In this document: positions 35,792-62,147 of the stretch, piece after piece
Numbering within the stretch: the first letter of the stretch is position 1
How the letters are laid out: the number at the start of each line of letters is the position of its first letter
Assembly: GCA_039934415.1 (NCBI GenBank)
Contig: JBDTME010000002.1
Location: 92,746-156,745, forward strand
Length of the DNA: 64,000 bases
Reading direction: 5' to 3'
From: Patescibacteria group bacterium
Lineage (GTDB): Bacteria; Patescibacteriota; Microgenomatia; UBA1400; PJMF01
The notes under the pieces: model-generated
The model's input: the letters and a program-made list of their open reading frames with translations, nothing else
The model's database searches: none
Told to the model about the DNA's origin: nothing
Made by a program: the position numbers and the translations under genes

Positions 35792-37729
35792 CTACCCTTG
35801 TGTCTGTTGTTTTCGATCCGCTAACACTTTTGCTTGGGCGGCTTGTTGGTCGTTCATTTTTTGTTTGGCGAGTAATTCTTCTGGGTTGGTCGTAATCAGT
35901 TGATGTTCAGTGTCTGAAGCAATGACGCGCAGCGCCACGTGATTTTGACCAGCAAAGAAAATTCCTTCTCCCACATCTGAAGCTAAGAGTAGTCGTTGTT
36001 CACCTTCCGAAAGATAGAATGTTTGGGTCAAAATAGGCATCGAGGCACTTGATTGTTTCATCAAGAATTGAATCGAAGAGTTGGTCACGATGGCTTTGCC
36101 GTAATCGTTATTCAAGAAATCCTCTACATCCTGAGTGATTGTGGTAATACCCAAGAAGTATTTTCTGGCGCGTTTGGCGATGGAGTGGAGGAATGAGGCC
36201 GAATCGGCATACTTCATGAAGTACCACGCCTCATCAACAATCAAAATTCTTTTTTTCAGTTTTTTCTTTACACGAGTCCAGATAAAGTCCAAGATCATGA
36301 ACATTGCAATTGGACGCAGTTCTTCGTGTAAATCTTTAACCGAAAAAACCGTAAACGCGTTATGAATATCTAGATTTGATTTTTGGTCAAAAATACCGCG
36401 GAATGAACCTTTAATAAATTTCTCCAGTCGAGCAGATAAATTGAGCGCGTCTTGCGTCTCCATACCAATCAGGGCTTTATACAAGTCTTCCATTAATGGA
36501 GGCTCATTGGCTTGAGTTGCTGGATCTGGAGTAATGCCTTTGGCTTTATATGCTGCTACCAACGCTTGATCAAGAATAGCGTCTTCGGTTGGAGTCATCT
36601 CGCCCATCATCACTCTCAACAATGTGTGCAAAGAAATGATTTTTTGGCCTAGCTCGTTTTCGCCTTCTTCATAAACATTCGATAAATCAAATGGGTTGAT
36701 CTTGGTAGTGGCGCCGAAAGTGAAGTTAATATACTCGCCACCGACTGATTTACACAACTCTTCATACTCATGTTCAGGATCGAGAATCAAAATGTCCGCA
36801 CCAAAAATGAGTTGACGGAGGGCTTCGAGTTTAATTGTATATGATTTTCCAGCACCAGATTTGGCAAAGACGACCATGTTAGCATTTTCCAAACTGAATC
36901 GGTCAAAAATAACCAACGAACCATTATGCTCATTTAGACCATACACAATCCCATTATCTTGAGTCAATTCTGAAGACGTAAATGGAAACGTCGTTGCTAA
37001 AGAAGTCGTGTCCATGTTGCGCGTGATGAGTAACCGATCAACTCCCATTGGGAGTGTTGTTTTGAAACCATCTTCCATTTGTAGAGATGCTTTTTTGGAC
37101 ACAATGAGCAAACTTCCCAGCAATGATTGGAGTTGTTTACTACTACTCTCAAGCTTTTCTTTCGAGGTGTCCATTAACGTACAGTACAGACCAAACTGAT
37201 AGAAACGCTCAGAGCCTTTGGCGAGCTGTTCTTGCAGGGTGCGCGCATCTTCGAGCTTCACTTCCGTATTAATGTTGCTAATTTTCCCCGAACGAATGTC
37301 TGACTGAATTTCCGCTTCCATCTCCGTAATTTTGCGACGAAGATTGTCCAGAATCTTGTCGACCTCTTGGGGAAATATGTACATGCTAATATCGAGACGG
37401 TGCGGAAAATTAATTAACGGTGACAACCAATTTGCCGGGACTGTTCTGGGATACCCGGCGATGAAAAAGGTTCTAGTGTAAGTCGAGTTGATTTTTTGAT
37501 AAGTAAAGTCGACCTCAATTGCTTCTGGGGCGATGATGTCCTGAATGCTCACCAATCCTTGCGCAAACTGTTTCAAGACCTTCTGGTTTTCCAGGTCTTG
37601 TGTTGCTTTCTGTTGCTCTTCTTGAGAAACGGGTTTCTTTTTCAAAAAGGGCAGTGGTAGGTTGATTGAGAATTTGGGCATCACTCGATTAATTATCCAT
37701 GCCTGGTTGTGGCGTACTTGGCATTTCAC
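35792..37729 (-). CDS. type IV secretion system ATPase, VirB4/TrbE/PrgJ family
   Basis: Walker A VVFAKSGAGKSYT, Walker B RILIVDEAWYF and an overall 645-aa VirB4-like domain organisation. Confidence 0.8.
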   Translation of the reverse strand: MKCQVRHNQAWIINRVMPKFSINLPLPFLKKKPVSQEEQQKATQDLENQKVLKQFAQGLVSIQDIIAPEAIEVDFTYQKINSTYTRTFFIAGYPRTVPANWLSPLINFPHRLDISMYIFPQEVDKILDNLRRKITEMEAEIQSDIRSGKISNINTEVKLEDARTLQEQLAKGSERFYQFGLYCTLMDTSKEKLESSSKQLQSLLGSLLIVSKKASLQMEDGFKTTLPMGVDRLLITRNMDTTSLATTFPFTSSELTQDNGIVYGLNEHNGSLVIFDRFSLENANMVVFAKSGAGKSYTIKLEALRQLIFGADILILDPEHEYEELCKSVGGEYINFTFGATTKINPFDLSNVYEEGENELGQKIISLHTLLRVMMGEMTPTEDAILDQALVAAYKAKGITPDPATQANEPPLMEDLYKALIGMETQDALNLSARLEKFIKGSFRGIFDQKSNLDIHNAFTVFSVKDLHEELRPIAMFMILDFIWTRVKKKLKKRILIVDEAWYFMKYADSASFLHSIAKRARKYFLGITTITQDVEDFLNNDYGKAIVTNSSIQFLMKQSSASMPILTQTFYLSEGEQRLLLASDVGEGIFFAGQNHVALRVIASDTEHQLITTNPEELLAKQKMNDQQAAQAKVLADRKQQTQG

Positions 37730-38885
37730 CTACTTTACCTATTGGTGGTGTTCCGGCTTGATTGAGAGTCTGGTCAATGACACTTTGTGGGTCAGGCATC
37801 GTTGACGAATTCACTGCGGACGTCATTGGTGTTTCAGGTGGTGTTGAGACGGTTGGCGACTCGCTTACAGAGCTACCTGGCATCGCGGCTGGCGTAGTCG
37901 CACTTGGAACAGCAGGGACTTCAGGGGTGCTCATGGGAGCAGGTGAAGTAGATGCCATTTGAGGTGGTGTTGCAAAACCAAGATCTGTTTTCGTAAAATC
38001 TGGCATTTCTGGTGTGGTGCTCATGGGCGTTGGAGCAGCTGGAGTCGCTGGCGCAGCCGTGAATGCTGGTGTTTCGGTCATGGTTGGAGTAGGAACGCTA
38101 GGAGCTGGAGCTGGTTGCATCGTTGGATTTGGTTGTGCTGCCGGAGTTGGTTGAAGACTTGTTGGCATGGTTGGGGTGTCAATCATAAAATCTCCTTGGA
38201 TTTTTGCCTGGACGAGAGGCGTAGTATAATTTGCTGTATCCGTTACTTTTTGACCTTCAAACGACTCAGGGTTGTATGAAGAGTATAGCATCTGGATCAG
38301 TTCTTGAGTGGTAAGTTGTCTGGAATACAAACCAATTCTGGCTAGTTGGTCGATAAGGTGATCGCGACGTGGTATCAGATTCGTTTTGGCTTTTTCAATG
38401 ATGTAATTCTTTTCAAAACTCGACAGCGACTTACTTTTGGCACCAGGAATGACACTCTGTGTGGTGAGACCCATCTCAACTGCTGACAGTGGGATGATGA
38501 TGTAAAACTTCTTATCCAGAACGTTTTGATCTTGAACGAGTGACTCCACAAAAGAATGGTACTCTTTTATTTTTTGTCTATAGATTTGGTTTGTCGCCGT
38601 GTCTTCTAAATCTTGAATTTTTTTGAGATAGGCTGTCACGTCTTTTGGTTGAGAACGGATGACGATCTGGATCGGATAACTCAATGAGTTAAGCAAAGCA
38701 GCATAAGCGTAAATCGTCGCGTCTTGTTCACCTTCCGAGAGAAGACCGAAGTTCATCGCAGAGACCGTAATGACGAGTGATGCTGCTCCATCGCCAAGAA
38801 TAATCAGATCATTGGTAATGTCGTACAGATCCAGGAAGAGCTGAGTGGTGGAATTGCTGACGGTATCAGTTTTTTGCTTTGCCAT
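37689..38885 (-). CDS. hypothetical T4SS-associated protein with a Pro/Thr/Ala-rich C-terminal half
   Basis: Its stop overlaps the VirB4 start by 41 nt (translational coupling). The ~240-aa N-terminal globular part is followed by a low-complexity PTPAAQP-type region. Confidence 0.4.
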   Translation of the reverse strand: MAKQKTDTVSNSTTQLFLDLYDITNDLIILGDGAASLVITVSAMNFGLLSEGEQDATIYAYAALLNSLSYPIQIVIRSQPKDVTAYLKKIQDLEDTATNQIYRQKIKEYHSFVESLVQDQNVLDKKFYIIIPLSAVEMGLTTQSVIPGAKSKSLSSFEKNYIIEKAKTNLIPRRDHLIDQLARIGLYSRQLTTQELIQMLYSSYNPESFEGQKVTDTANYTTPLVQAKIQGDFMIDTPTMPTSLQPTPAAQPNPTMQPAPAPSVPTPTMTETPAFTAAPATPAAPTPMSTTPEMPDFTKTDLGFATPPQMASTSPAPMSTPEVPAVPSATTPAAMPGSSVSESPTVSTPPETPMTSAVNSSTMPDPQSVIDQTLNQAGTPPIGKVGEMPSTPQPGMDN

Positions 38886-38922: not shown

Positions 38923-39990
38923 TTACTCACTTGCTCGTATTTCGATTGGGTCAAGAATAGTGTTATTAAGCTCAAGTTTCTGAGTTGGAAACAGTATACC
39001 TTCTTTCTCTGCTTTCATAAAATACTCACCATTTTTGAGAGGAGTGCTGATGTAAAACTGTCCAATTTTGTTTGTTCTGACTGCGCGAACTGGCATGCCT
39101 TGATCGTCAGCAATTTCAACAATAGCGTTTTCAACGATGTTGCCAACCTGGTCAAACACCATACCGACAACAATGTTGGGTTGTGTTGGTTTCTTGGGAA
39201 AGGGGAGAGTGTCAGATGTTTGAACGTTGAGTGCAGCTGAGTGTTGTGCTGTGGGATCATCAACAACTAGAGAAGCGGCATTAAAAACGTCTACTACTTC
39301 TGAAGTAGTTTCAGGTGCAGGTGCTTCTACCGGAACAGTCACTTCTTCAATACTTGGCGGAAGAGTCTCCGGAATTTGTTCAGCTGTCAATCTTTCGTCT
39401 TCGTAAGGAACATTGGTTTTAAAGAGATTATCAAATTGTTGTAGTGGATGTTGTTGTGCTGTAAGGTCTGGTTTGGTTAGTAGTTCAACGGCATCTACTG
39501 TTTCGACGTGTACAGTGTCGAACAGCGATAGGACCGCACTCATCTGCTGGGCTTCTTGGTATGCCAGTGGATCTAAAGCAGACTCATCTGGAAGAGTGTG
39601 AATATACTCATAAATACGCTGTTGTTTTAAAGGAGATAAATCAAGTTCGTCTTGAAACGTCGTAGTTTCTTTCGTGGTATATGTTAAGTAGTCGGGCAAG
39701 TTACCTGATTTTCTCCAATAAAAGAGTGTTGGTTTATAAATTGCTCGAAATAAAGCGATGAACCATTGGTCGAGTGGACGGCCTTCATAGGGAACGAACG
39801 CGATCATTGCCCCAAGTCCAACGAAAAAAACAATCAGCGGCCACTTGATTACGCTATATAAATTCGTTTGATAAATCACCACTCCTAACAAAATTCCCGC
39901 ACCCAACTCCAAAAACTGCTTGAGCGTCATGTTCCCAATCAGGTGAAATTCGTAGCTAGTGACAGCTTGTGGTATCGGATGATCTTGCAT
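38923..39990 (-). CDS. hypothetical membrane protein: a PrgI/VirB3-like 2-TM N-terminus and a C-terminal carboxypeptidase-regulatory-like beta domain
   Basis: The two N-terminal hydrophobic helices occupy the position and size of VirB3/PrgI upstream of VirB4. The C-terminus carries the motif NKIGQFYISTPLKNGEYFMKAEKEG. Confidence 0.35.
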   Translation of the reverse strand: MQDHPIPQAVTSYEFHLIGNMTLKQFLELGAGILLGVVIYQTNLYSVIKWPLIVFFVGLGAMIAFVPYEGRPLDQWFIALFRAIYKPTLFYWRKSGNLPDYLTYTTKETTTFQDELDLSPLKQQRIYEYIHTLPDESALDPLAYQEAQQMSAVLSLFDTVHVETVDAVELLTKPDLTAQQHPLQQFDNLFKTNVPYEDERLTAEQIPETLPPSIEEVTVPVEAPAPETTSEVVDVFNAASLVVDDPTAQHSAALNVQTSDTLPFPKKPTQPNIVVGMVFDQVGNIVENAIVEIADDQGMPVRAVRTNKIGQFYISTPLKNGEYFMKAEKEGILFPTQKLELNNTILDPIEIRASE

Positions 39991-40078: not shown

Positions 40079-41137
40079 TCATTCTACCTTAACGGCTGGT
40101 GAGATAGCTTCGACGTTAAAGATGCTATTGTTTTTGTCTTTTCCAACGCCGTAAAAATGGATGTATGGCAGAATGTATCCATTCTGTTCGTTTTGTCTGT
40201 ACTCCAAGGTGGCCGAGCTAAACTCAACATTGGAGAGGTTCTCGGCATTTGGTTCAATAGCATCAAAGTTTCCTGCGTGAATATAGGTGATGAGACCGGC
40301 AAGCATCCTATCCTCGACTCCACCAAGCCCCAGAGAGTTTACGATTTGTACTTGTTCAAAACTGCTTGGAACAGGATAAAAGCTGATTTCTAAAATACTT
40401 GCATTTTTGTCAACTCTAATGATCGCTGGAGATTGAACCTTATCACTGGAAATGAATGGAATATTGTCTACTAAAGTGTTGAGTGTAATTTTGTACGCAT
40501 TTGTTGAAGCCTCGTCTTTTGCTGGTTCAGTACTTTCTGGATTTACGCTTTGAGGTTCTGGTTCTGAAAGTGTGTAGTTTTGGAACAACTGGTGTTCGTC
40601 GATAAACGACCGAATTTTTTTTGCTATTTCCTCATGAGTTACGGTTGCCGTTTTGGGTAAAGTATCATCTAAAATGCTGAGCAGAATGTCTTTCTTATAC
40701 GCAATGAGTGTCGCGTTGCCACTCGTTGTCAACTGATATTCTTGGTTGGCATCTTGCCAAGCGTTGCTTGTCCCAGGTACTGGAGTAAGCGGAAGTTGCT
40801 TAGCGAGTTTTTGTATGGTTGTTTCAATTGTTTCTGGTTGCAAGGCTTGATAAACAGCCAGCTTGCTAGGCATGCTCATTGTCAAGTTCTTATCGAAAGT
40901 GATTTGTGCTTTATATGTTTTTTCTGTAGTGACCACGGTTTCCGCTGGAGGAGGTGTTGGTGTCAGTGCCTGCAAAATAGCCGAAATAACAACAGCCAAA
41001 CCCATTATTACAATAAACACTCTCAACCATTTCTTCTGAAATAGTTTTGTGATGAATGATGGAAGTTGCAATCGATTATTTTCCATAATATTCGTCACAT
41101 CTTGGTCCTTCAGGTACTTTGCCAGCAGTGCTGACAC
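40079..41137 (-). CDS. hypothetical membrane-anchored protein (T4SS locus)
   Basis: 352 aa with one N-terminal TM helix. Its start overlaps the end of the preceding gene (41076..41137). Confidence 0.35.
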   Translation of the reverse strand: MSALLAKYLKDQDVTNIMENNRLQLPSFITKLFQKKWLRVFIVIMGLAVVISAILQALTPTPPPAETVVTTEKTYKAQITFDKNLTMSMPSKLAVYQALQPETIETTIQKLAKQLPLTPVPGTSNAWQDANQEYQLTTSGNATLIAYKKDILLSILDDTLPKTATVTHEEIAKKIRSFIDEHQLFQNYTLSEPEPQSVNPESTEPAKDEASTNAYKITLNTLVDNIPFISSDKVQSPAIIRVDKNASILEISFYPVPSSFEQVQIVNSLGLGGVEDRMLAGLITYIHAGNFDAIEPNAENLSNVEFSSATLEYRQNEQNGYILPYIHFYGVGKDKNNSIFNVEAISPAVKVE

Positions 41138-44100
41138 CTAATGTTTGAATTAAGGCATAGTCACTCAAACCTCTAATCTCATAGTGTAAGTGATTTCCAT
41201 CAGATGCTCCACCAGGACCATGCGTACTATCAACATGACCTACTAATTGTCCACCCTCAACCGTTTCGCCCACGTGGACGACGATTCCACCATCAATCTG
41301 ATGGGCGTAATAAGAAAGCCAACCACCGTGATCAATGACTAACAGATTGCCAAACGCATTATTGTCACGTTTAGTGGTGACAACTGTAACAACGCCTGGT
41401 GCAGCGGCGTAGATAGGAGTGTTTAATGGAGCCGCAATGTCGTAGGCGTCAGGACGAACTTTGAATCCGCCACAATGACTCCAACTTGGATGTGTAATAC
41501 ATTGTTGAGTTAAAACTGGGTGACTTATGGGACCAGTACCATATGGAAGTTGAGTCACCCTCCCTTTTACAGGCCAACAAGGAGGAACGGTTGTTGTCGG
41601 ACAATCTCCAAAACAGGTCTGTGCCCGACTGGTACTGCTGTCAGCTTGACCAGCTGCGGTGATGTTTGCCTTAATATCATTTTTGACCAAAGAATCACTA
41701 AAACGAGAGTCTGATGCATCGACGGTGAATTGAAGATGAATCGGCTGATCTGCTGTGAGTGGTTGGCCTGCCAAAGCAGCGAGTTGGTCAGTGAGTTCCT
41801 GAGGGAGAGCTGGCGGATCAATCACGTTCGAATCTTTATCAATTGCACTCATAGTATCTGTGAGTCCCGTAATGACGATCTCTTCCGTTGCCTCAGGTTT
41901 TTTGGAGAGGTCAATTGTGTATGTGATCGGACCTTGCGCATTAGAGTTGCTGGGTTGGGCAGTTTTTTTCAAAGTGATGTATCGCGATTCGTCAGCATCT
42001 AGCGAAAAGTATGGTGCGACTTGAGTGACGCTGGCATCGGGGAGGAAAGCGCTTAGGATCATGGATGTGGTGAAGATGTTTGCGATGACAATAGTTACTA
42101 GTGGGATGCCAACGGCAGCAGCTATAGTAGCCGTAGAGCCTGTGATACCTTGTGCAGTCAGTGTCTGTGCAGCTCCTTCTAAGAAGCCTGTAGTTTGACC
42201 CGCTGCAGTTGAAACTGCCGGTCTGGCAAAGTTGCTTAGTGCAGCTTTAGTACTTGATGGAAGAGCGCTCGCATAACTAGATGTACTTCCGGCATCAGAG
42301 GCGCCTTTCATAAATCCTGCTATGCCGCCCGCGATTGCTCCAACACTTGCCCCGATGGCTGTTCCAACCACTGGAAAAAAAGAGCCAATGATTCCACCGG
42401 CCACGGCACCACCAGCCACACCACCAAGTGTTGTGCCTGCCACACCCTGCACCATGTTTGTGATGATTCCGTAAATGGCTGCACCAGTTCCGGCAGCACC
42501 ACCAACGACAAGCACACCTTTTTTAAGCTGTGATGAGCCAATTTTTGTAGCCGTCCCCTGAAGACTAGCGGCATTGAGATTTCCTATGCCCTTGGCTCTG
42601 CCTAACCAGTCTCTTAAATTACTTAATCCTTGAACATTTCCTACCTGTGGAGCGTTCCAAGATTGATGTGGGACTGCTGTGTCATATAAAGCCTTATTGA
42701 AAGCCGCACGACCTTGATTGTCGAGCTGAGTTTGTCCTGCCGGAAGAAATTGCTGGCGATCAACCCCCAACATATTGCTGTAAAAGACTTGTTCTTGTTC
42801 ATCAAGATTGTTAATTTGTGCCTGTAACTGGTTGAGATACTGATTGCGAACGTAGAGCGCCTCAGCTCTCAGAAATTTTTCTTGTTCTGAAGCTTCTGCT
42901 GGAGTAATTGCCAAATCTCGAGTGAAAAAAGCATGAGCCAGAACTTTATCTGTATTGGCTTTATATTTGGGGGAATACGTTTTGATCAATTCTCGATATT
43001 GCTCCGTGGAAAGAGAGAGGGGTGTTGTCTCTCCGGGCTCAAGGCTATGAGTAAGTAAATTATTTTGGGTGTAGTTTGCCAACGCATGTTTTCGTTGCGC
43101 GACGTACGACTCCATGATCTGTAAAACCTCTTGATTGTTTCTGAGACTAGGATCGAGCTCGTTGAGCATGACCTTAAGATTGTCAGAGAGGAGATGAGGA
43201 CTACCGAGTGATAACGCGTAAGAATCAAGAGTATTGAGAATATTTATTTCAGCGGAGCCATCTTTATTATAAGTTCGTAATAAAGAGACGAGCGCTTCTT
43301 TGGGATTGTCTTTGCTGAAGCGTTGAAACTTGGCAAAGTTTTCGAAGTTGGCTTGAGTTACTGTTTTGCCATTTGTCTGCAATTGTTTGAGATAGACATC
43401 TATTTGTCCGAGCAGTTTTTTGCGTTCATCTGCTCCGAGAGAAAAAATGTTTTCTGGAAAGATCTGACGGAGTTCAAGAGGATCTAAGGCAGAGATTCCA
43501 GTCCCTTTCGTTCTTGGAGCTCGTCTCAAAATTTCATCGCCGAGGTTTTCGATTGACTCTGCAGAAACCATTGCTTCAAAAGTCGCAATTTGCTTGAGTT
43601 GCTTTTTAAACTCTTGTTTGGCGAGTTCTGAGTAATCTTGTGGAGCATCTTCTGAGTCGATTTTTTCTGAAAAGAGTTGGGTGGCATCCTCGGCAGTTTT
43701 AAGTGATCCTTTGAAACTCGTGTCGTTAAAAGCCTTGAGTTCAAACTTCTCTTTTAAAATTTCAGTTTTTAAGAGAAAGTACTCGTTGTTGCATAAGCGC
43801 TTATAAATTTGATCAACGTGTGAAAGCAGTTGTTGTCGGATCGTAATTCTGTCGGTGATTGATAGCCGGCCAGATTCAGCAAGTAGCAATGCGAATTGAG
43901 GGTTTTCTTGAAGATAGAGAGAAATGACTCCTGCAATATCCTCTTGGAGCGAGAATAATTGAAAGTCGAGTTGTCTTTGTTCATCGGCTGGTAGTTTGTT
44001 GTAAAACGTTCGCCAATCAGCGACATCTAGAGCCGAGTTCAACACTTCATTCATCAGGGCGCCAGAGTCTCTCCAACCTTCTTGAGCGGCGATTTTTTGA

Positions 44101-44771
44101 ACTTCAAATGGTGAGGGAGGTGTTTGTTCGTCCGTGCGGGGTACATTCTGAGCGTCATTTTCTGCTGGAGTTTGTTCTGTCTGAGATTTCCTGAAAGCGC
44201 CACCGCCGACATAACTCCCATCGACTTCTTTCTCAGATTTGTCTTTGGTTTTTTCTTCGTTTGCTTGAGCTTCGTCTGGAGCTGCTTCCCCAGATATTTT
44301 TCGTGCGATTAAATCCTCACTGATACTCCTCAATAGTTGGAGAGCGTTGTTTTCTTTGAGCAAGTACCGTCGGACATATTCATCGCGATTGAGTATGTCA
44401 CTTTCTGATTTCTCGTCATTGGGAAGGAAAAACAAGGGCATTTTTTCAAATACTTTTGGATTCTTCCGGTTAACTTCAGTGAAGATGAGATTTAAAAAAT
44501 AGCGAACTTGGTTTTTATCCTCCGCTGCTTCGGATGCAGTAAAGATTGAGTTGAATCGGGTAGGAATAGTTTGGTTGACCTTGCTACTCACTAGTTCATC
44601 TAAAGTGTCGACGATTTCATCTAGAAAATCAGGGAACTCTGGAAGTGCCAGTACTGTTTCTAGGGAGAGCGGGTCGAAATCAACTTTGTGTTTTTCTAGC
44701 TCGTCGATATACGTGGATAGCGCACTAGAATTCAGAAGCGTCGATGGTTGTTCAAATACCGTAGTTGCCAT
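41076..44771 (-). CDS. large T4SS-associated protein with a glycine-zipper TM region and a C-terminal M23 peptidase domain
   Basis: The C-terminal M23 (LytM) motifs are HGGWLSYYAH, H.VGETVEGGQLVGHVDSTHGPGGASDGNHLHYEIR. The central Gly/Ala-rich segment is GVLVVGGAAGTGAAIYGII...GGIAGF. 1,231 aa. Confidence 0.7.
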   Translation of the reverse strand: MATTVFEQPSTLLNSSALSTYIDELEKHKVDFDPLSLETVLALPEFPDFLDEIVDTLDELVSSKVNQTIPTRFNSIFTASEAAEDKNQVRYFLNLIFTEVNRKNPKVFEKMPLFFLPNDEKSESDILNRDEYVRRYLLKENNALQLLRSISEDLIARKISGEAAPDEAQANEEKTKDKSEKEVDGSYVGGGAFRKSQTEQTPAENDAQNVPRTDEQTPPSPFEVQKIAAQEGWRDSGALMNEVLNSALDVADWRTFYNKLPADEQRQLDFQLFSLQEDIAGVISLYLQENPQFALLLAESGRLSITDRITIRQQLLSHVDQIYKRLCNNEYFLLKTEILKEKFELKAFNDTSFKGSLKTAEDATQLFSEKIDSEDAPQDYSELAKQEFKKQLKQIATFEAMVSAESIENLGDEILRRAPRTKGTGISALDPLELRQIFPENIFSLGADERKKLLGQIDVYLKQLQTNGKTVTQANFENFAKFQRFSKDNPKEALVSLLRTYNKDGSAEINILNTLDSYALSLGSPHLLSDNLKVMLNELDPSLRNNQEVLQIMESYVAQRKHALANYTQNNLLTHSLEPGETTPLSLSTEQYRELIKTYSPKYKANTDKVLAHAFFTRDLAITPAEASEQEKFLRAEALYVRNQYLNQLQAQINNLDEQEQVFYSNMLGVDRQQFLPAGQTQLDNQGRAAFNKALYDTAVPHQSWNAPQVGNVQGLSNLRDWLGRAKGIGNLNAASLQGTATKIGSSQLKKGVLVVGGAAGTGAAIYGIITNMVQGVAGTTLGGVAGGAVAGGIIGSFFPVVGTAIGASVGAIAGGIAGFMKGASDAGSTSSYASALPSSTKAALSNFARPAVSTAAGQTTGFLEGAAQTLTAQGITGSTATIAAAVGIPLVTIVIANIFTTSMILSAFLPDASVTQVAPYFSLDADESRYITLKKTAQPSNSNAQGPITYTIDLSKKPEATEEIVITGLTDTMSAIDKDSNVIDPPALPQELTDQLAALAGQPLTADQPIHLQFTVDASDSRFSDSLVKNDIKANITAAGQADSSTSRAQTCFGDCPTTTVPPCWPVKGRVTQLPYGTGPISHPVLTQQCITHPSWSHCGGFKVRPDAYDIAAPLNTPIYAAAPGVVTVVTTKRDNNAFGNLLVIDHGGWLSYYAHQIDGGIVVHVGETVEGGQLVGHVDSTHGPGGASDGNHLHYEIRGLSDYALIQTLGVSTAGKVPEGPRCDEYYGK

Positions 44772-44876: not shown

Positions 44877-45134
44877 TTAGTAGACTTCTTCGTGCGTGCC
44901 AATGTCGATGAAGAAGATGACATCCTCTTCTTGTAAAAAAAGAATTCTGACACTCATATTTACGTAGGCTGACACGACTTCAGTGTTTTTTAATTTATGT
45001 AGTTTTAAAGAAGGATGTTTTGGATTGTTCTTTATTAGCTTGATAGTTTTATTTACTCGGTATTCCCAATCTGTGTTCTTCTTAATGAGCTTTTGCAGCT
45101 TCTTGGCAAAAGATGCCGAAAAAATTAAACGCAT
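44877..45134 (-). CDS. type II toxin, RelE/ParE superfamily
   Basis: 85 aa with the basic beta-core pattern. Its start is 3 nt after the stop of the upstream antitoxin. Confidence 0.6.
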   Translation of the reverse strand: MRLIFSASFAKKLQKLIKKNTDWEYRVNKTIKLIKNNPKHPSLKLHKLKNTEVVSAYVNMSVRILFLQEEDVIFFIDIGTHEEVY

Positions 45135-45136
45135 AT

Positions 45137-45400
45137 TTATTTGAGTGAGTCGAAGAATTTATCAACGTCTTCATCTGTTTCCAAAACAGTACTTTTACCT
45201 ATAGCGTAATCCCTTTTGGCTTCTTTGATCAGATCTTCGTAGGGATCTTTTTGAACGAGTCTTCGGAGAGCGTCACGAATAACATCACTAAATGAGCTGT
45301 AAAAACCTAAGTCAACGAGTTCTTCGGCCTGAGCCTTGAGTTGTGCTGGTAGGGAGATGTTGATGGTAGCCATATGCATCATTATACAATAATTATACAA
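45137..45400 (-). CDS. type II antitoxin, ParD/CopG ribbon-helix-helix family
   Basis: ISLPAQLKAQAEELVDLGFYSSFSDVIRDALRRL is RHH-like. The true start is probably the internal Met at 45373. Confidence 0.6.
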   Translation of the reverse strand: MYNYCIMMHMATINISLPAQLKAQAEELVDLGFYSSFSDVIRDALRRLVQKDPYEDLIKEAKRDYAIGKSTVLETDEDVDKFFDSLK

Positions 45401-47380: not shown

Positions 47381-49138
47381 TTATTTTCGTTCGATACCGT
47401 AGAGGTTGCTTTTCAAAGAGATGCGACCGGGAGCTCGTAGATTAAAAATTTCTTTAAATTCACTACTACTCATTCGAAGTTCGCCACGATTAGTTTGGAA
47501 CACAACTGAAGATGTCGTGCCAGCAGAGGAGTGTTCCACTTTGACTGAAGAGATGGAACTGTATGCACCACCTTTGCTATCTGCTCTCGACTTCATCTCA
47601 TCAATGCTCCATGAATCGCTTCCCCAACATGGTCCGAGTGGTCCAACTTTATCGGCGTCGCCTCCACCAGCTTTACGGACAACCCAAGCATTTAAGATAT
47701 CTGCCATCTCATTTTCGCGTAACCAAGGTGAATCTTTACCACAAGTATCACCCCCGCGAGTGGTGTACCACGCTTTGTAAAACCAAGGACTACCACCTTT
47801 TTTCTCATATGCTCCATCAGTCCAGTTTGACCAGTCTGAAGTGGAGTCCCAAAGACCAGGAACACTATGGCCAACCGAAGTATATCCAAGCAAATGTCCG
47901 CCAGCCGTACTAGCATACATGGTACTAAATACGTCGCCTGTGGCTTTACTGACGAGCACTTTTCCTTTGGTGGCATTAACTGCATCGTGCCACGCGCCAC
48001 CGGCTTGGAACTTGCTGGATTTATAGACCTGACACGCTTCGGTGACACAAATTGAGCCTTTGAGTGACTGGTTTCCCATGCGCCACCCCAAGTACGAGAG
48101 AGCATAGGTACGAGCGGCGATGGCTTGGGCTTTGAGCGCTTCAGAGTTCCAACTCCCTGGCATTTCTGCGATGCCTTTTAGGTACTGATTTTCAAATGGC
48201 ATAGTGCCGACAGAAGTGGCAACGGTGTCTGGCATCGACACATCTTTTATTTCGACGTCACCGTAATATGCTTTGAGAATTTGTTCGTAACTTTGGCCGG
48301 ACTCGGCTCTTCCTTTGGCTCCGTATTGACTCATACCTTTAAAATGTGGCGCGCCAAAACTAAACACCGCAAACGCAGGTGAAAATCCTGGATTGTAACT
48401 CGGAAGCGATTTTGGATCACCGCCCTCTGGAACCTCTCCGACTGAAGTTGTGGCGGTCCCGGCTTTGCTGGCGATAATTTGTTGCTGTTGTGCTGTTAGA
48501 CTTGCGATTTTGCCAGAAACTTCTGATTGATAGGTTTTGGCTTTAGAAATTTCCACATCAAAAAACTTTTTCTGCTCATTGAGAGTGATCTGGAGGGCGG
48601 CCAGTTTTTTTTGGTCATCCTCGAGTTTCTTTTTGTCGGTTTGTAGGTTGATGATGTCTTGAGCTGTGGATTGAATAATGCTTTTGTCTTGATCTTGAGC
48701 AGAGGCTTTATATGCCAAGTCTCGTGTGATGTTTTGTAAATCACCTTGTGCAAAAAAAATCATAAATGGCGATGGCGATTTACTTCGTTTGTAGCGTTCT
48801 GAGACTCGATAGGAGAAAAGAGCAATTGTGTCGGCGAGGTCATCTTCTCGCTGTGTGATATTGACAGCCAGTTTTCCGGCGTTTTTTTTGGCCGAATCGA
48901 TACCGGATTGGGCGTTTTTGACGCGTTGGGACAGAGAAGTGGCTTGTTGCTCCAAAGGTTTCGTCGCATCCTCAGACTGCTTTTTCATTTTTTCCAACTC
49001 ATTGATCTGATTTTGCAACTCTTCGACTGGGTCGATGGCGCGAGTCGCGGTTGGGAGGAGGGAGCAAGAAGTAAGGAGGATACCAATGACGAGAAGGCGA
49101 AAAAAGTGTGGTGGTCGAAAATGGTTTGAAGTGGGCAT
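47381..49138 (-). CDS. SpoIID/LytB domain protein with an N-terminal signal/TM and a long coiled coil
   Basis: The SpoIID core AQAIAARTYALSYL...CVTEACQVY. The N-terminal ~250 aa is coiled-coil. Confidence 0.7.
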   Translation of the reverse strand: MPTSNHFRPPHFFRLLVIGILLTSCSLLPTATRAIDPVEELQNQINELEKMKKQSEDATKPLEQQATSLSQRVKNAQSGIDSAKKNAGKLAVNITQREDDLADTIALFSYRVSERYKRSKSPSPFMIFFAQGDLQNITRDLAYKASAQDQDKSIIQSTAQDIINLQTDKKKLEDDQKKLAALQITLNEQKKFFDVEISKAKTYQSEVSGKIASLTAQQQQIIASKAGTATTSVGEVPEGGDPKSLPSYNPGFSPAFAVFSFGAPHFKGMSQYGAKGRAESGQSYEQILKAYYGDVEIKDVSMPDTVATSVGTMPFENQYLKGIAEMPGSWNSEALKAQAIAARTYALSYLGWRMGNQSLKGSICVTEACQVYKSSKFQAGGAWHDAVNATKGKVLVSKATGDVFSTMYASTAGGHLLGYTSVGHSVPGLWDSTSDWSNWTDGAYEKKGGSPWFYKAWYTTRGGDTCGKDSPWLRENEMADILNAWVVRKAGGGDADKVGPLGPCWGSDSWSIDEMKSRADSKGGAYSSISSVKVEHSSAGTTSSVVFQTNRGELRMSSSEFKEIFNLRAPGRISLKSNLYGIERK

Positions 49139-49192: not shown

Positions 49193-49597
49193 TTAGGGTT
49201 GCAGGCGGATGTTTTTATCAATCTTGTCAAAGTCTTTGTCAAAGGAGATAACCTTTGTTGAATGAGTTTTAGCTTTTAGCGCGAGATAACAATCCACAAA
49301 ATCAATGTTTTTGTTTTGAAAAGTATCTAAAGAATTCAAAAGCACACTTTTGTTTACCGTTACAACCTGTTTATTTTGAAAGAAAATGAACAGAAAATGA
49401 ACGGCTTCCTTTTTTGAAATGTTATATTTCCCTCCTGTTGATACAAATAGAAATTCACTGATTACTAAGGGGTCAATAAAAAGAATCTGATTCTGTATCA
49501 AAAGGTTTTCGATTATTTTTTCGGCTTTCTGTGCCTGTACCGGATGATCTCTCAAAAAAAGTCGTAACAGAATATTGGTGTCGACAAGGTATGTCAT
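49193..49597 (-). CDS. vapC: PIN-domain toxin (VapC-like)
   Basis: MTYLVDTNILLR with the conserved acidic residues of the PIN fold. It overlaps the upstream antitoxin by 4 nt. Confidence 0.65.
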   Translation of the reverse strand: MTYLVDTNILLRLFLRDHPVQAQKAEKIIENLLIQNQILFIDPLVISEFLFVSTGGKYNISKKEAVHFLFIFFQNKQVVTVNKSVLLNSLDTFQNKNIDFVDCYLALKAKTHSTKVISFDKDFDKIDKNIRLQP

Positions 49598-50001
49598 GAT
49601 TCTTCAGCGAGTTCTTTCATCAATTGCTCGTCTTTTTGCTGGTAATACTCAGCCATTTCTTTTCTGTACTGTTTTTTTGAAATTGGTTTACCTTCATAGG
49701 TAGCAGCAGCTTCTCTTACTGAAGAAATGAATTCGTGTACAGAAATATATTTGGTCAATTTTTCTTCTGGATCTAAGATTTGGATTTGAAAAGTCTGTCC
49801 AGGGGAAAGATCCAAGGATTTGACCAGCTCTTTAGGGTAGGTCACTTGTCTTTGAGTGGTCATTTTCAATGAGAATGTTTGCATGTCCATTATTTTAACA
49901 TCACCCATTACTCTGTCAATTAGTAATGAGTGTTGTGGCGTTCGAGGAACATCTACGCGCAAACCGCTAGACTGAAGAACGAACTTTCGCTGGTAAACCA
50001 C
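49594..50001 (-). CDS. vapB: VapB-like antitoxin (SpoVT/AbrB-type swapped-hairpin region)
   Basis: QRQVTYPKELVKSLDLSPGQ resembles an AbrB/MazE DNA-binding segment. The true start is probably an internal Met (MDMQTF...). Confidence 0.45.
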   Translation of the reverse strand: MVYQRKFVLQSSGLRVDVPRTPQHSLLIDRVMGDVKIMDMQTFSLKMTTQRQVTYPKELVKSLDLSPGQTFQIQILDPEEKLTKYISVHEFISSVREAAATYEGKPISKKQYRKEMAEYYQQKDEQLMKELAEES

Positions 50002-51190: not shown

Positions 51191-51988
51191 ATGTTAAAAT
51201 CACGACCTTCTATGAAGAAAATGCTGAAAAGTGTTCTAGCGTTTTTGTTTTTGATTTCATTTTTTGTGCGTTTTTTCTCACCTGTTTCAGCTGAAGTAGT
51301 CGCACCAACGTGTTCGGCTATCTCTGTTCCGATAACTTTAACGGCCTCAGATGCCAATATCAATATTACCTTCAATCCATCACTTGGTTTACAAGATGAC
51401 GGGAGATATCGTTTCAACTACGAAGATGCTTCTGTGGATCATAATGTAACCGAGTACTTCGGTCGAGAAGACGATCGTTCAAATTGGAGTGTAGATTTTT
51501 CCTTTAACACTGTCATTGCCGCACCTCAGACGTTGGCACTACAAAATCTCGATGGACAACAGTTTTGTCTCGTTACTTTTCGATATGACCAAGCATCAAA
51601 CACTGTATTAGTGACCAAACCAGGTCAGGGGCAAACTCCAGAATCATTTAATCTGTGTCAACAAGCTGGTACCAATCACGGAACTTGTGATGCATGTTTA
51701 GCTAATGGCGAAATATGGACGGGTGTAGGATGCATTCCTTTCAAAACTGGCGTTGCAACCGTACGAGCAATTATTGTATTAGGACTCGGGATTACTGGTA
51801 CCGCGGTAGTACTAATGACACTCTATGCCGGGTTTATGTTTAGCACCTCGCAAGGTGATCCTAAACGAGTCGACGAAGCCAAAAGCGCTGTGACCTCAGC
51901 GATCATCGGCGCCTTTTTCATCATTTTCTCCGTCACCATCCTCCAATTCATTGGAGTAAGCATCTTGCACCTGCCAGCTTTCGGGTAA
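51191..51988 (+). CDS. secreted protein with a C-terminal T4SS pilin-like domain (candidate minor pilin/adhesin)
   Basis: A signal peptide, a ~150-aa domain, then GVGCIPFKTGVATVRAIIVLGLGITGTAVVLMTLYAGFMFSTSQGDPKRVDEAKSAVTSAIIGAFFIIF (helix - charged loop - helix), which resembles the small pilins at 290..1394. Confidence 0.5.
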   Translation: MLKSRPSMKKMLKSVLAFLFLISFFVRFFSPVSAEVVAPTCSAISVPITLTASDANINITFNPSLGLQDDGRYRFNYEDASVDHNVTEYFGREDDRSNWSVDFSFNTVIAAPQTLALQNLDGQQFCLVTFRYDQASNTVLVTKPGQGQTPESFNLCQQAGTNHGTCDACLANGEIWTGVGCIPFKTGVATVRAIIVLGLGITGTAVVLMTLYAGFMFSTSQGDPKRVDEAKSAVTSAIIGAFFIIFSVTILQFIGVSILHLPAFG

Positions 51989-52043
51989 ACAGCACCTTAA
52001 CTTGGCCTTCAAATTTTTTTGTTTCCAATGATATGATGAAGAA

Positions 52044-53285
52044 GTGAAAAAAATTCTTCTCACTTTTTTGTTCGCTTTCCTCTTTTTGGCTACAAACGTC
52101 AAAGTAGTTTTTGCAGATAATGACACTTTAGGGGTTTACTGTGATGTTACTGTGAATGGTGTGGCGTTGTCGTCAACTCAAGATTCTGCGCCGACAATCT
52201 ACGCGAGTAGAAAAGATGGAGCAAATTACGTCTACCCTTTTAAAGTGTGTGGAAATTTAGCGCTTTTGAATAATCTTCCTACTGGTGTCAAACCTGTGAT
52301 CGACATGACACCGTATCACTTCGACTTTACTGCTTTTCAACCGTCAGAAAGAATAAACCTGACTCAAGATGGTAGTTGTTTAGTTGGTGAATACTCCAAA
52401 AACCTTGCACCAAATGGGAAGACCGTCGACTCCGTTTATGATGTTGAAGGTGATAATTCTGGGAATACGCCTATTTGTCATCGAGTGTTCGCTAGGCTAG
52501 CACCAAGTGTGTTAGCGGATACCGCTGCTTGGGCGAACGCTAGTACGATGTGCGGGACAATCGGCCTGGACCCTGTTGCACCAATCCACAATGACAACGT
52601 GACTATTGATTTTGTTCTCCCTGAACCATTTTGGACAAATGCGATTAACTCCCCAGAAGGAATCTCATACAGTGGTTTACATTATAAATTGATTCGTTCT
52701 GCTGATGGCGCTGAGCTACAAAATGGAGAAGTTTCTGGCATTATAAATGGAGGACTGGCAGATCCTCATATCTTTGAACATGTTGACCACATGGATGCCG
52801 GTAACTATCGAGTAAAATTCGTCTTAGAAGGGAGTAATGGTAATTTAGATATTTGCGAAAGAAGTTTCGACGTTGGTACTCAGAATGATCCAGGGAAACT
52901 GAATGATAGCGTAGGTTCAGTTGACGAATTTAAGTTGTGTAATCAAGCAGGTCCGCCAGGTTCCGACTCTTACACGGCATGTAACAAATGTTTTTATAAC
53001 AATAGCGGTATTTGGACTGGAGTGGGGTGTATTCCTTATACGAACACTGCCTTGATGGTTAGAGCTCTTATCGTTTTAGGATTGGGCATTGCAGGCACTG
53101 CGGTAGTACTGATGACACTAGCTGGGGCATTTTTGATGTCCACCTCTAGGGGAGAACCTCAAAGAGTTGAAGAAGCGAAGAGTTTGATTACATCTGCCGT
53201 TGCTGGAATATTTTTCATCATTTTTTCTGTAAGTATTTTACAATTTATCGGTGTGAGTATTCTGCATATCCCTGGGTTCGGATAG
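52044..53285 (+). CDS. secreted protein with a C-terminal T4SS pilin-like domain, paralog of 51191..51988 with a larger N-terminal domain
   Basis: The C-terminal ~110 aa is nearly identical in pattern (IWTGVGCIPYTNTALMVRALIVLGLGIAGTAVVLMTL...RVEEAKSLITSAV...). The ~300-aa N-terminal domain is different. Confidence 0.5.
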   Translation: MKKILLTFLFAFLFLATNVKVVFADNDTLGVYCDVTVNGVALSSTQDSAPTIYASRKDGANYVYPFKVCGNLALLNNLPTGVKPVIDMTPYHFDFTAFQPSERINLTQDGSCLVGEYSKNLAPNGKTVDSVYDVEGDNSGNTPICHRVFARLAPSVLADTAAWANASTMCGTIGLDPVAPIHNDNVTIDFVLPEPFWTNAINSPEGISYSGLHYKLIRSADGAELQNGEVSGIINGGLADPHIFEHVDHMDAGNYRVKFVLEGSNGNLDICERSFDVGTQNDPGKLNDSVGSVDEFKLCNQAGPPGSDSYTACNKCFYNNSGIWTGVGCIPYTNTALMVRALIVLGLGIAGTAVVLMTLAGAFLMSTSRGEPQRVEEAKSLITSAVAGIFFIIFSVSILQFIGVSILHIPGFG

Positions 53286-53299
53286 GGTATAATATCTTT

Positions 53300-54136
53300 A
53301 TGATCAAGCTAAAGTTTTTTGTCCTTCTGCTTTTTTTCGTAAGTTTTTTTGTTGTGACCTCTCCAGCTCATGCTCAACAATGTATGACTGATGGTAGTGT
53401 TCCTTGTGCTGCTGGATTTGTTTGTGATTGTACTGGCGAGCCTGGATGTGGCCAAGATGCGACACGTGGTGAGTGTAAGCCAGTGCCGAAACCAAATGGT
53501 TCACTGTGCGGAGCTAATACTGAGTGTACGAGTGGGTATTGTAATATTGTATGTACCGTACCACCTTCATCCCTGCCTAGCTGTATTCCTGGATCAGCTT
53601 TTGACAACAAAATAGACCCTCGGATGAGTAGTTGTTTGGAAGGAACTGTTATTCGCTATCAATGTGGAACAGGCTATCAACTGGACATAAGTACAAAAAT
53701 CTGTAATGCACTCCCGACGACTAACTCACCCGCCCCAGCACCATCGGACAGTACTGTGCCGACTCCTCCAGATTCTTCAAGCGGAATAGCCAACGGGCTT
53801 TTTTTGTTTTTAGTAAATCCCTTAACTGTCACTGGAAATAAGAATCCACTGGCAGGAATCATTCAAGGTTTTACGAATGTCACCCAAACCTTCACCACTC
53901 CGGCTGGTTTTCTCAATGCCTTGATGCCTTTCCTTTTTTCGATTGCTGGCATAATATTGTTCGTGATGATCATTTGGGGTGGTTTTGAGATGATCTATGG
54001 GGCAGCCGATACCAAGGCTCAAGAGGCTGGTAAACAACGTATTACCGCCGCTCTAATCGGCTTTACCCTTCTGTTCATCTCTTACTGGATCGCGCAGATT
54101 TTGCAGGCGATCTTTGGGGTGAATATTTTAGGGTGA
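53300..54136 (+). CDS. Cys-rich secreted protein with a C-terminal T4SS pilin-like domain
   Basis: An N-terminal Cys-rich module (CMTDGSVPCAAGFVCDCTGEPGCGQ...). The C-terminus FLFSIAGIILFVMIIWGGFEMIYGAADTKAQEAGKQRITAALIGFTLLFISYW matches the pilin architecture. Confidence 0.5.
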   Translation: MIKLKFFVLLLFFVSFFVVTSPAHAQQCMTDGSVPCAAGFVCDCTGEPGCGQDATRGECKPVPKPNGSLCGANTECTSGYCNIVCTVPPSSLPSCIPGSAFDNKIDPRMSSCLEGTVIRYQCGTGYQLDISTKICNALPTTNSPAPAPSDSTVPTPPDSSSGIANGLFLFLVNPLTVTGNKNPLAGIIQGFTNVTQTFTTPAGFLNALMPFLFSIAGIILFVMIIWGGFEMIYGAADTKAQEAGKQRITAALIGFTLLFISYWIAQILQAIFGVNILG

Positions 54137-60813: not shown

Positions 60814-60856
60814 AGTGCTGTTGTTTTTGAAAAATTAAAAAATTGAGATTGTATCT

Positions 60857-62146: not shown

Positions 62147-62147
62147 C

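Follow-up and report, generated by a model that had tools for sequence, protein, structure and literature searches.

A giant M23 metallopeptidase protein at the head of a VirB4 operon in Microgenomatia, with two alternative C-terminal ends and a co-varying partner protein

The giant gene and its operon

The subject of this analysis is a stretch of 64,000 nucleotides from a Patescibacteria group bacterium assigned to the Microgenomatia (contig JBDTME010000002.1, positions 92,746 to 156,745 of the forward strand; hereafter the window), and in particular a giant protein of 1,231 amino acids (aa) encoded by the first gene of an operon for a type IV secretion system (T4SS). The giant ends in a domain of peptidase family M23, and it belongs to a protein family conserved in T4SS loci of the Microgenomatia type, in which this end alternates with a domain of another kind, the enzyme end and the neighbouring partner gene being exchanged together as a cassette between close relatives. 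The operon lies on the minus strand in the order giant, 335-aa partner, PrgI/VirB3, TrsD and VirB4, followed by dnaA and dnaN, with recF also nearby. The genes of the T4SS operon overlap or abut, the ATG of the partner gene overlapping the stop codon of the giant by 11 nt. Its features are as follows.

41076..44771, minus strand, including the stop codon: giant open reading frame (ORF), 1,231 aa, from the ORF list and its translation
40079..41086, minus strand: partner gene, 335 aa, N-terminal transmembrane (TM) helix and ectodomain, predicted to be YycH/YycI/PepSY-like
38923..39990, minus strand: PrgI/VirB3-like protein (Pfam PF12666, E=2.4e-7) with a C-terminal CarboxypepD_reg-like beta-sandwich
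37689..38885, minus strand: TrsD-like protein, an N-terminal VirB4-like module (NCBIfam TrsD and the N-terminal part of VirB4_plasma)
35792..37729, minus strand: VirB4 ATPase of the CD1110 family (NCBIfam NF045971, E=1.6e-111; Pfam TraG P-loop)

A separate TrsD gene is the arrangement known from Patescibacteria (PMC12102498); that of the window ends in a low-complexity tail of about 160 aa rich in Pro, Thr and Ala. From the giant through VirB4, the M23 domain is the only recognisable hydrolase domain, as the initial annotation, made from the sequence alone, had stated. The same annotation had described a 1,231-aa ORF with a Gly/Ala-rich hydrophobic centre and a C-terminal M23 domain, a description borne out by Pfam, PDB and Foldseek matches and by a nearly invariant glycine zipper. 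The identical protein entry at NCBI is titled 'MAG: M23 family metallopeptidase [Patescibacteria group bacterium]' (MAG, metagenome-assembled genome). The giant can be divided into the following parts.

42537..44771, minus strand: N-terminal region, aa 1-745, presumed cytoplasmic, fast-evolving (composition)
42033..42518, minus strand: Gly/Ala-rich hydrophobic region, aa 752-913, with three Gly-zipper helices and one 30-aa helix (hydropathy)
42327-42365, minus strand: zipper G803-x3-G807-x3-G811-x3-G815 (GxxxGxxxGxxxG), Gly columns nearly invariant among relatives
41610..41987, minus strand: 'Mid' domain, aa 929-1054, an all-beta stalk from the last hydrophobic helix to the peptidase
41571..41615, minus strand: junction, aa 1053-1067 (CFGDCPTTTVPPCWP), from the alignment of M23-type giants with those carrying the alternative, HExxH-type end
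41133..41579, minus strand: M23 (LytM) metallopeptidase domain, aa 1065-1213 (Pfam, PDB sequence matches, structural model and Foldseek)

The first 740 or so residues are acidic by composition (net charge about -29), rich in Leu, Glu and Gln and furnished with a single Cys. Neither a signal peptide nor a TM segment was found in aa 1-745, and the N-terminal region has no match in Pfam, NCBIfam or PDB. It was detectable in about ten relatives only; no remote homology was detected between the 745 N-terminal residues of the window giant and the N-terminal family common to 31 other giants (hhalign probability 4.7%). The centre, where Ala makes up 17% and Gly 14% of residues 741-965, holds hydrophobic stretches at about aa 752-772, 777-798, 801-822 and 876-913. 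These helices are weakly hydrophobic (mean Kyte-Doolittle value 1.1-1.35), the match to Gly-zipper_YMGG is weak (E=0.0027, below the Pfam cut-off), and AlphaFold predicts helices over the region at low confidence (predicted local distance difference test, pLDDT, 30-50). The Mid domain is modelled as strands throughout (pLDDT 87-98), and an iterated hidden Markov model found it in 36 of 53 syntenic giants, M23-less ones included, and in 57 of 65 long representatives. The junction of the window giant is the counterpart of the motif IG[DNE]Pxx-G-C of the family, just after which the type of C-terminal domain switches; in the family alignments C1065 is invariant or nearly so, and W1066 and P1067 are invariant.

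The M23 domain and its metal site

Pfam PF01551 (Peptidase_M23, curated cut-off 28.7 bits) matches aa 1109-1201 of the giant with 64.9 bits (E=7.7e-18), and solved M23 chains match the domain by sequence, the best being Csd1/Csd2 (E=3e-13). The C-terminal part was modelled with AlphaFold (aa 930-1220, pLDDT 85-98), and Foldseek matched the model with a probability of 1.00 to NMB0315, ShyA, Csd3, Csd1/2, LytM and lysostaphin; the LytM domains of DipM and EnvC were also among the matches. By every sequence and fold criterion tested, the C-terminal domain of the giant belongs to peptidase family M23, its first motif being a non-canonical H(x)11D. Conservation of the catalytic residues was assessed in two independent alignments, A2 and A3, of 20-34 divergent relatives with overall identities of 17-53%.

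41475..41477, minus strand: codon of H1099, proposed first zinc ligand (H-x11-D), invariant in A3 and conserved in at least 90% in A2
41439..41441, minus strand: codon of D1111, zinc ligand, invariant, aligned to position 5 of the PF01551 profile
41301..41303, minus strand: codon of H1157, catalytic His equivalent to His260 of LytM, invariant (role from PMC9662197)
41184..41192, minus strand: H1194-L-H1196, the HxH motif, H1194 invariant and H1196 invariant or at least 90%

At the position of the canonical HxxxD the giant reads P1107-DAY-D1111, with Pro in place of His, and the textbook HxxxD is present in no member of the giant protein family. What every member has instead is a His that lies after the invariant CWP motif and before the Asp, the shortest form being SH-x6-D and other members carrying longer insertions. 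In the window giant this residue is H1099, which lies 12 residues before D1111 in an 'SHCGG'/'THCGG' context common with the closest relative, at locus L001; the loop that holds it is bordered by two conserved cysteines, C1091/C1100. The first motif of M23 enzymes is defined as H(x)nD with variable n, which is 12 in active LasA and 7 in active phi29 gp13 (PMC9662197). Like phi29 gp13 and LasA/beta-lytic protease, the giant has its first zinc His more than three residues away from the Asp, together with an HxH motif and the extra His; unlike the phage tail enzyme gp13 and the secreted bacteriolytic LasA, its M23 domain is fused to a membrane protein within a T4SS operon, and its insertion carries the Cys pair. 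We propose that H1099 sits at the metal site as the first zinc ligand. Since all five residues are conserved and the spacing of H(x)nD is known to vary among active enzymes, the M23 domain is judged to be probably active, and we consider it unlike the degenerate LytM domains of, for example, EnvC or PrgK. The initial annotation had looked to an H-x(n)-D and an HxH motif as the check on its M23 assignment; the full set of ligands including HxH is present, as is the further catalytic His, H1157, which M23 enzymes have some 30-40 residues ahead of HxH, but with n=11 (H1099-x11-D1111) and without the canonical n=3.

Related loci, alternative C-terminal ends and gene surroundings

Word-indexed homology searches with the full giant or aa 1-740 as query matched nothing but the giant itself, so that an exhaustive HMMER scan (query aa 1-1095, against 1.84 billion representatives) was needed to find relatives. 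It returned 126, most of which align over the hydrophobic and Mid regions only. With VirB4 as a probe, 80 loci (labelled L001 and so on) were collected from species-representative genomes at VirB4 identities of 69-92%, and the 49 of these having at least 5.5 kb upstream of prgI were used to test the position of the giant. A protein of 1,035-1,681 aa stands at this position in 47 of the 49, and in one of the two exceptions there is a displaced copy. All giants are built alike: the N-terminal part is long and not of membrane type, the hydrophobic centre is rich in Gly, and 200-540 residues follow at the C-terminal end. The order giant-partner-PrgI-TrsD-VirB4 persists where dnaA is elsewhere or inverted (L005, L038, L055, L064, L066). 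The giant is thus a conserved component of T4SS loci of the Microgenomatia type; as the first gene of a VirB4 operon, with an equivalent in nearly all related loci, it shows the co-occurrence with VirB4 that the initial annotation had named as a check.

The giant and its partner are at the same time the most divergent genes of the locus in a sister-pair comparison. Between the window and L001, identity is 89% for VirB4 and 79% for DnaA, against 35% for the partner and 31-50% for the giant. At L013, an ORF upstream of the giant is homologous to the N-terminal part of other giants, so the giant there is apparently split. In many related loci a soluble protein of 550-710 aa, belonging to one of two families, is encoded directly upstream of the giant (L005, L009, L031, L040, L048, L049, L053, L062 and L011, L032, L043, L051, L067); it has no counterpart in the window, where an unrelated VanW protein occurs. 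Dozens of MAG records with Patescibacteria-type T4SS/dnaA loci (e.g. L001-L003, L007, L008, L010) are titled 'uncultured Pseudomonadales bacterium' and are apparently mislabelled.

The C-terminal ends of 53 giants from VirB4-anchored loci were compared. An M23 domain is present in 35, followed in a few cases by an extra domain (CHAP at L063, an NAGPA phosphodiester glycosidase in giants of the L006 type). The M23-less giants were first read as enzyme-free, a reading that was rejected once a domain with an HExxH...E signature was found in 16 of these 18 (L002, L004, L007, L011, L015, L030, L032, L038, L043, L051, L054, L055, L056, L061, L064, L066). This end comprises about 200 aa, contains Cys and has invariant HExxH and EAFAE motifs (invariant H, E, H, E and E). 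No Pfam family recognises it, and profile comparison with PDB gave weak matches to zincins (M35, Zmp1/PPEP and CapP, E 0.005-0.06); it is a candidate for a new, zincin-like metallopeptidase family.

Both types of end follow the shared Mid domain and the IG[DNE]Pxx-G-C junction, and they are scattered over the VirB4 tree: on the 53-taxon tree 12 changes of end type are needed, compared to 15.2 expected with shuffled labels. The VirB4 proteins of L011 and L026 are 95% identical, and the giants at these loci have opposite end types; the DNA similarity between the two loci stops at about aa 1130 of the giant and returns exactly at the start of prgI. For L039 and L041, the N-terminal part of the giant is 93% identical, the M23 domain 43% and the partner 29%. 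The enzyme end and the neighbouring partner gene are thus exchanged together as a cassette between close relatives.

The partner itself changes form with the end. At M23-type loci it measures 315-390 aa and 33 of 34 partners fall into one full-length family, which was never found beside HExxH-type giants. At HExxH-type loci it has about 200 aa and shares only the first 70 or so residues with the long form; this short partner occurs in 15 of the 18 non-M23 loci. Distances between M23 domains and between partner ectodomains are correlated (Mantel r=0.73; partial r=0.65 given VirB4), and linkage alone could contribute to this co-variation. Profiles of the partner families gave nothing significant against PDB and Pfam. 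In the model of the window partner, from an alignment of four sequences (pLDDT 74; predicted template modelling score, pTM, 0.68), alpha/beta repeats come after an N-terminal TM helix, and YycH was the sole significant Foldseek match to it (E=1.4e-6); a fold like that of YycH, YycI, YpeB and propeptides was reached by two methods from the predicted structure. YycH/YycI, YpeB-SleB and PepSY propeptides represent a fold class tied to the control of wall hydrolases and to the inhibition or chaperoning of metalloproteases. Unlike the WalK regulators YycH/YycI, the SleB partner YpeB and the PepSY propeptides, the window partner has no match at the sequence level and no accompanying histidine kinase; with the resemblance resting on a four-sequence model, an inhibitory role would be a suggestion of the fold.

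Outside the operon, the window contains several genes that bear on the secretion system or on the cell wall.

51191-54136, plus strand: three tandem VirB2-like pilin genes (265, 413 and 278 aa; PF18895 T4SS_pilin, E 1e-7 to 2e-4)
54195-57941, plus strand: 1,248-aa orphan protein, encoded directly after the pilin genes, with neither a TM segment nor a match in Pfam
58023-59741, minus strand: 572-aa polytopic protein (about 7-8 TM segments), without a match in Pfam, convergent to the 1,248-aa gene
47381-49138, minus strand: SpoIID/LytB-domain protein, 585 aa, encoded 2.6 kb upstream of the giant; its N-terminus has an anchor or a lipoprotein-like signal

The pilin genes lie 6 kb from the giant on the opposite strand, and each product combines a signal-like N-terminus and a variable domain with a two-helix T4SS_pilin module at the C-terminal end; the trio matches the VirB2-like pilin arrays reported for Patescibacteria. 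The 572-aa protein is a possible VirB6 analogue. The 80 related loci yielded neither it nor the 1,248-aa protein, though their flanks may end too early. SpoIID is a family that cleaves glycan strands. The SpoIID protein was rejected as a syntenic T4SS partner, being common only to locus L002.

Between nnrD and the giant, a ribbon-helix-helix antitoxin and a ParE/YafQ-like toxin are encoded (44877-45400, minus strand); at L002 nnrD adjoins the giant, which makes the pair in the window an insertion just upstream of the T4SS operon. A further pair, probably VapBC-like, consists of a 134-aa PIN-domain protein overlapping a 135-aa ORF with no Pfam match (49193-50001, minus strand). Downstream of dnaN, yidC and a KH/R3H gene lies a gene for a 1,138-aa DUF4012 protein with one central TM segment (25911-29327, minus strand), which is kept at the same place in 46 related loci. 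A trio at 59821-63131 on the plus strand may be a module that ligates and trims peptides; it encodes a 7TM_transglut membrane protein, a sugar-transfer-associated ATP-grasp enzyme and a MATCAP-like carboxypeptidase. A scan of the window against Rfam found no RNA family, and a scan for promoters and terminators performed no better than on shuffled sequence.

Proposed topology, activity and target wall

We lean, by a little more than an even chance, towards the view that the giant is a membrane-anchored peptidoglycan endopeptidase of a Microgenomatia-type, monoderm-like T4SS and that it is bound and controlled by its partner. The large, fast-evolving N-terminal part would stay in the cytoplasm, the Gly-zipper helix bundle and one further helix would anchor the protein in the membrane, and the beta-sandwich stalk and the zinc-binding M23 domain would face the cell wall. 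Zinc would be held by H1099, D1111 and H1196, with H1157 and H1194 serving in catalysis, and the domain would cut peptide cross-links of the peptidoglycan beside the secretion or pilus apparatus. The partner, a putative single-pass protein whose gene appears to be translationally coupled to that of the giant, would bind the peptidase and restrain or position it. An extracytoplasmic C-terminus is favoured because of the Cys pattern (six among the last 180 aa, a single one among the first 740), the near invariance of C1065 and C1225, the presence of a DsbA-like gene in the window, and the charge bias around the helices, with K/R before the first and D/E after the last.

Several points weigh against this view. 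Counted naively, the four hydrophobic helices would leave both ends of the giant on one side of the membrane, so that an N-in/C-out topology needs one of the Gly-rich stretches not to span the membrane, and the AlphaFold model is unreliable over just this region. The window giant has no SLT (soluble lytic transglycosylase), lysozyme or CHAP domain recognised by Pfam or NCBIfam, and the active module of characterised T4SS hydrolases is a glycosidase (SLT or lysozyme); the only characterised T4SS LytM domain, that of PrgK, is degenerate and inactive (PMC11323569). The model of the partner derives from an alignment of four sequences. A housekeeping enzyme working on a constant wall of its own would not be expected to evolve fastest in the locus, nor to alternate some 12 times among 53 genomes with an unrelated HExxH zincin.

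The closest known counterparts are the hydrolases of monoderm T4SSs, which are membrane-anchored and essential; PrgK among them combines a cytoplasmic N-terminal part with a TM helix and a LytM domain, and binds a single-pass partner (PMC11323569). Like PrgK (Enterococcus faecalis pCF10, 'DELTA' class), TraG (pIP501) and CwlT (ICEBs1), the giant is encoded within a VirB4-containing operon of monoderm type. It resembles PrgK further in its putative cytoplasmic N-terminal part, its predicted membrane anchor and an M23/LytM fold that would lie on the outside, in the company of a single-pass membrane partner (PrgL in the case of PrgK), and, as far as multiple hydrolase domains are concerned, in the CHAP domain that some relatives carry after M23. 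Unlike PrgK, whose one active module is an SLT/muramidase domain, it lacks such a domain, and its M23 domain keeps all catalytic residues whereas the LytM domain of PrgK is degenerate. Its anchor is a multi-helix Gly-zipper region rather than a single TM helix, its N-terminal part comprises about 740 aa, its partner is predicted to be YycH/PepSY-like and not VirB8-like, and the C-terminal domain of its family alternates with an HExxH zincin. With no glycosidase domain, the giant is not a homologue of VirB1, and its likeness to the monoderm T4SS hydrolases would be one of function at most.

These comparisons also bear on what the initial annotation made of the protein. In its proposed role as the wall-remodelling part of the secretion machine, the linkage to the T4SS genes and the intact catalytic set hold, while the likeness to VirB6 and the restriction to cross-links find no support. 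That the machine cuts cross-links rather than glycan does not follow, as the SpoIID protein is encoded upstream on the same strand and CHAP or NAGPA domains occur in some relatives. The contrast drawn with the classical VirB1 lytic transglycosylase is less novel than it was presented, M23/LytM domains being already known in monoderm T4SS hydrolases (PrgK; PMC11323569).

The co-variation of end and partner opens a host-directed reading, in which the giant is a polymorphic effector whose exchangeable M23 and HExxH warheads would breach or remodel the host envelope where epibiont and host touch, and the partner is an immunity or latency protein that would shield the wall or proteins of the producer or keep the warhead latent; we hold this to be possible, though on balance doubtful. 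Cassette behaviour, rapid divergence and alternation with a protease-like zincin would be expected of a module facing a conflict, more than of an enzyme for a constant wall of its own. It draws on the two unrelated, putatively metallopeptidase ends (35 M23, 16 HExxH...E) behind one junction, on the downstream partner that switches between long and short form with the end, on the number of switches, about 12 against 15 expected at random, on the opposite ends at L011 and L026 and the low identities of M23 and partner between L039 and L041, and on the standing of giant and partner as the most divergent genes of the locus. PepSY-type folds are tied to protease inhibition in propeptides and YpeB. 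Patescibacteria are epibionts with an essential T4SS that lacks conjugation proteins (PMC10633639; PMC12102498). A trunk, a junction, alternative ends and a co-varying downstream gene, the comparative marks of polymorphic toxins, are all found at the locus of the giant, which in this respect, and in its fast turnover relative to the machinery genes, resembles both these toxins and X-Tfe/X-Tfi, the effector-immunity pairs of the bacteria-killing T4SS of Xanthomonas; the X-Tfe/X-Tfi systems target peptidoglycan or the envelope, as the giant may do. On the other side, the giant appears to be anchored in the membrane of the producer, with a stalk of only about 130 aa, so that the host wall would be hard to reach unless the enzyme were released. 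Unlike polymorphic toxins, it is the fixed first gene of a core operon, not a variable accessory locus, and has a membrane anchor, and unlike X-Tfe it has no recognised secretion signal domain such as XVIPCD, nor were orphan cassettes seen in the window. The conserved 70 N-terminal residues of the partner suggest a structural role, and neighbouring genes can co-vary by linkage alone. In its fullest form, which we regard as a tentative proposal that is rather unlikely to hold in all its parts, giant and partner would constitute a polymorphic, host-facing 'wall-breaching' module inside an essential T4SS operon of Microgenomatia epibionts: a conserved membrane trunk would present the warheads behind the IGxPxxGC junction, which might be a release site, the cognate YycH/PepSY-like protein would protect the producer or keep the enzyme latent, and the turnover would track the wall types of the hosts.

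Another explanation, to which we give a low probability, is that the M23 domain is a non-catalytic regulator or scaffold of the LytM type, as in EnvC, NlpD and PrgK, that binds peptidoglycan or activates or restrains another hydrolase, for instance the nearby SpoIID-like enzyme. The absence of the canonical HxxxD from every family member would fit, as would the degenerate and regulatory LytM domain of PrgK and the presence of DipM and EnvC among the fold matches. Degenerate LytM domains, however, are without the ligand residues, all five of which are invariant or nearly so here; the H(x)nD spacing varies among active enzymes, and the best sequence and fold matches (Csd1, ShyA, NMB0315, Csd3) are active endopeptidases. 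Somewhat less probable still is that the giant is a divergent 'extended VirB6' channel subunit, with the hydrophobic centre as part of the translocon and M23 as an add-on. The initial annotation had likened the protein to VirB6 extensions, and the universal presence of the giant in an operon where no VirB6 is recognisable between giant and VirB4 would be in keeping with this, VirB6 homologues having been reported as scarce in Microgenomatia (PMC12102498). The likeness was not upheld: no match to VirB6, TrbL or PrgH was obtained even at E<=1, three to four weakly hydrophobic Gly-rich helices do not make a polytopic core, VirB6 having five or more TM helices in its core, and the window has a separate polytopic protein of 572 aa beside the pilin genes. 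That the giant is a general endopeptidase of wall growth or division, merely adjoining T4SS genes near the replication origin, is very improbable, even though the M23 enzymes ShyA, MepM and Csd are housekeeping and the locus adjoins dnaA, dnaN and recF, given that 47 of 49 loci keep the gene order through VirB4, some of them with dnaA elsewhere or inverted, that the genes overlap or abut, and that M23 alternates with a non-M23 domain, which would be intolerable for a dedicated growth enzyme.

Coming back to the giant as an endopeptidase of the secretion machine, the window locus conforms to the Patescibacteria T4SS as described in 2023-2025 and can be placed beside the T4SS of Saccharimonadia (S. 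epibionticum ML1), with which it has in common an MPF-FATA-like VirB4, separate TrsD and PrgI genes, nearby pilin genes, a position beside dnaA and no relaxase or coupling protein in the locus. In S. epibionticum, homologues of a peptidase and a lysozyme beside virB4 are essential (PMC12102498); the genes of Saccharimonadia, the only group with such genetics, are different ones. A survey from 2025 detected VirB1 only by means of TrsG, CD419 or VirB1 profiles, found it weakly associated with VirB4 outside Paceibacteria, reported VirB6 as scarce in Microgenomatia, and mentioned M23 only as an extra domain of VirB1 homologues (PMC12102498). Its text and supplements do not describe the giant M23/HExxH family or the co-varying partner, and the supplements have no M23 or SpoIID entries. 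A T4SS-linked M23 domain as such is therefore not new, being known from PrgK and from the M23-containing VirB1 homologues of that survey; a giant family heading the Microgenomatia operon, with two interchangeable ends and a co-varying YycH/PepSY-like partner, does not appear in the literature searched.

The T4SS is the one machine without which a cultivated Patescibacterium has been shown not to grow as an epibiont (PMC10633639; PMC12102498). The Microgenomatia, with almost no VirB1 or VirB6 equivalents in the survey, thereby gain a conserved operon component with a probably active cross-link peptidase and a candidate regulator. Peptidase ectodomain and partner ectodomain form concrete pairs, and the HExxH domain would represent a new family. 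The rapid and linked turnover of enzyme end and partner points to the host interface. If the giant opens only the wall of its own cell, it would be an ordinary, though architecturally unusual, analogue of VirB1; if it faces the host, giant and partner would be the first effector-immunity-like system tied to the T4SS of Patescibacteria and would offer a handle on how these epibionts open their hosts.

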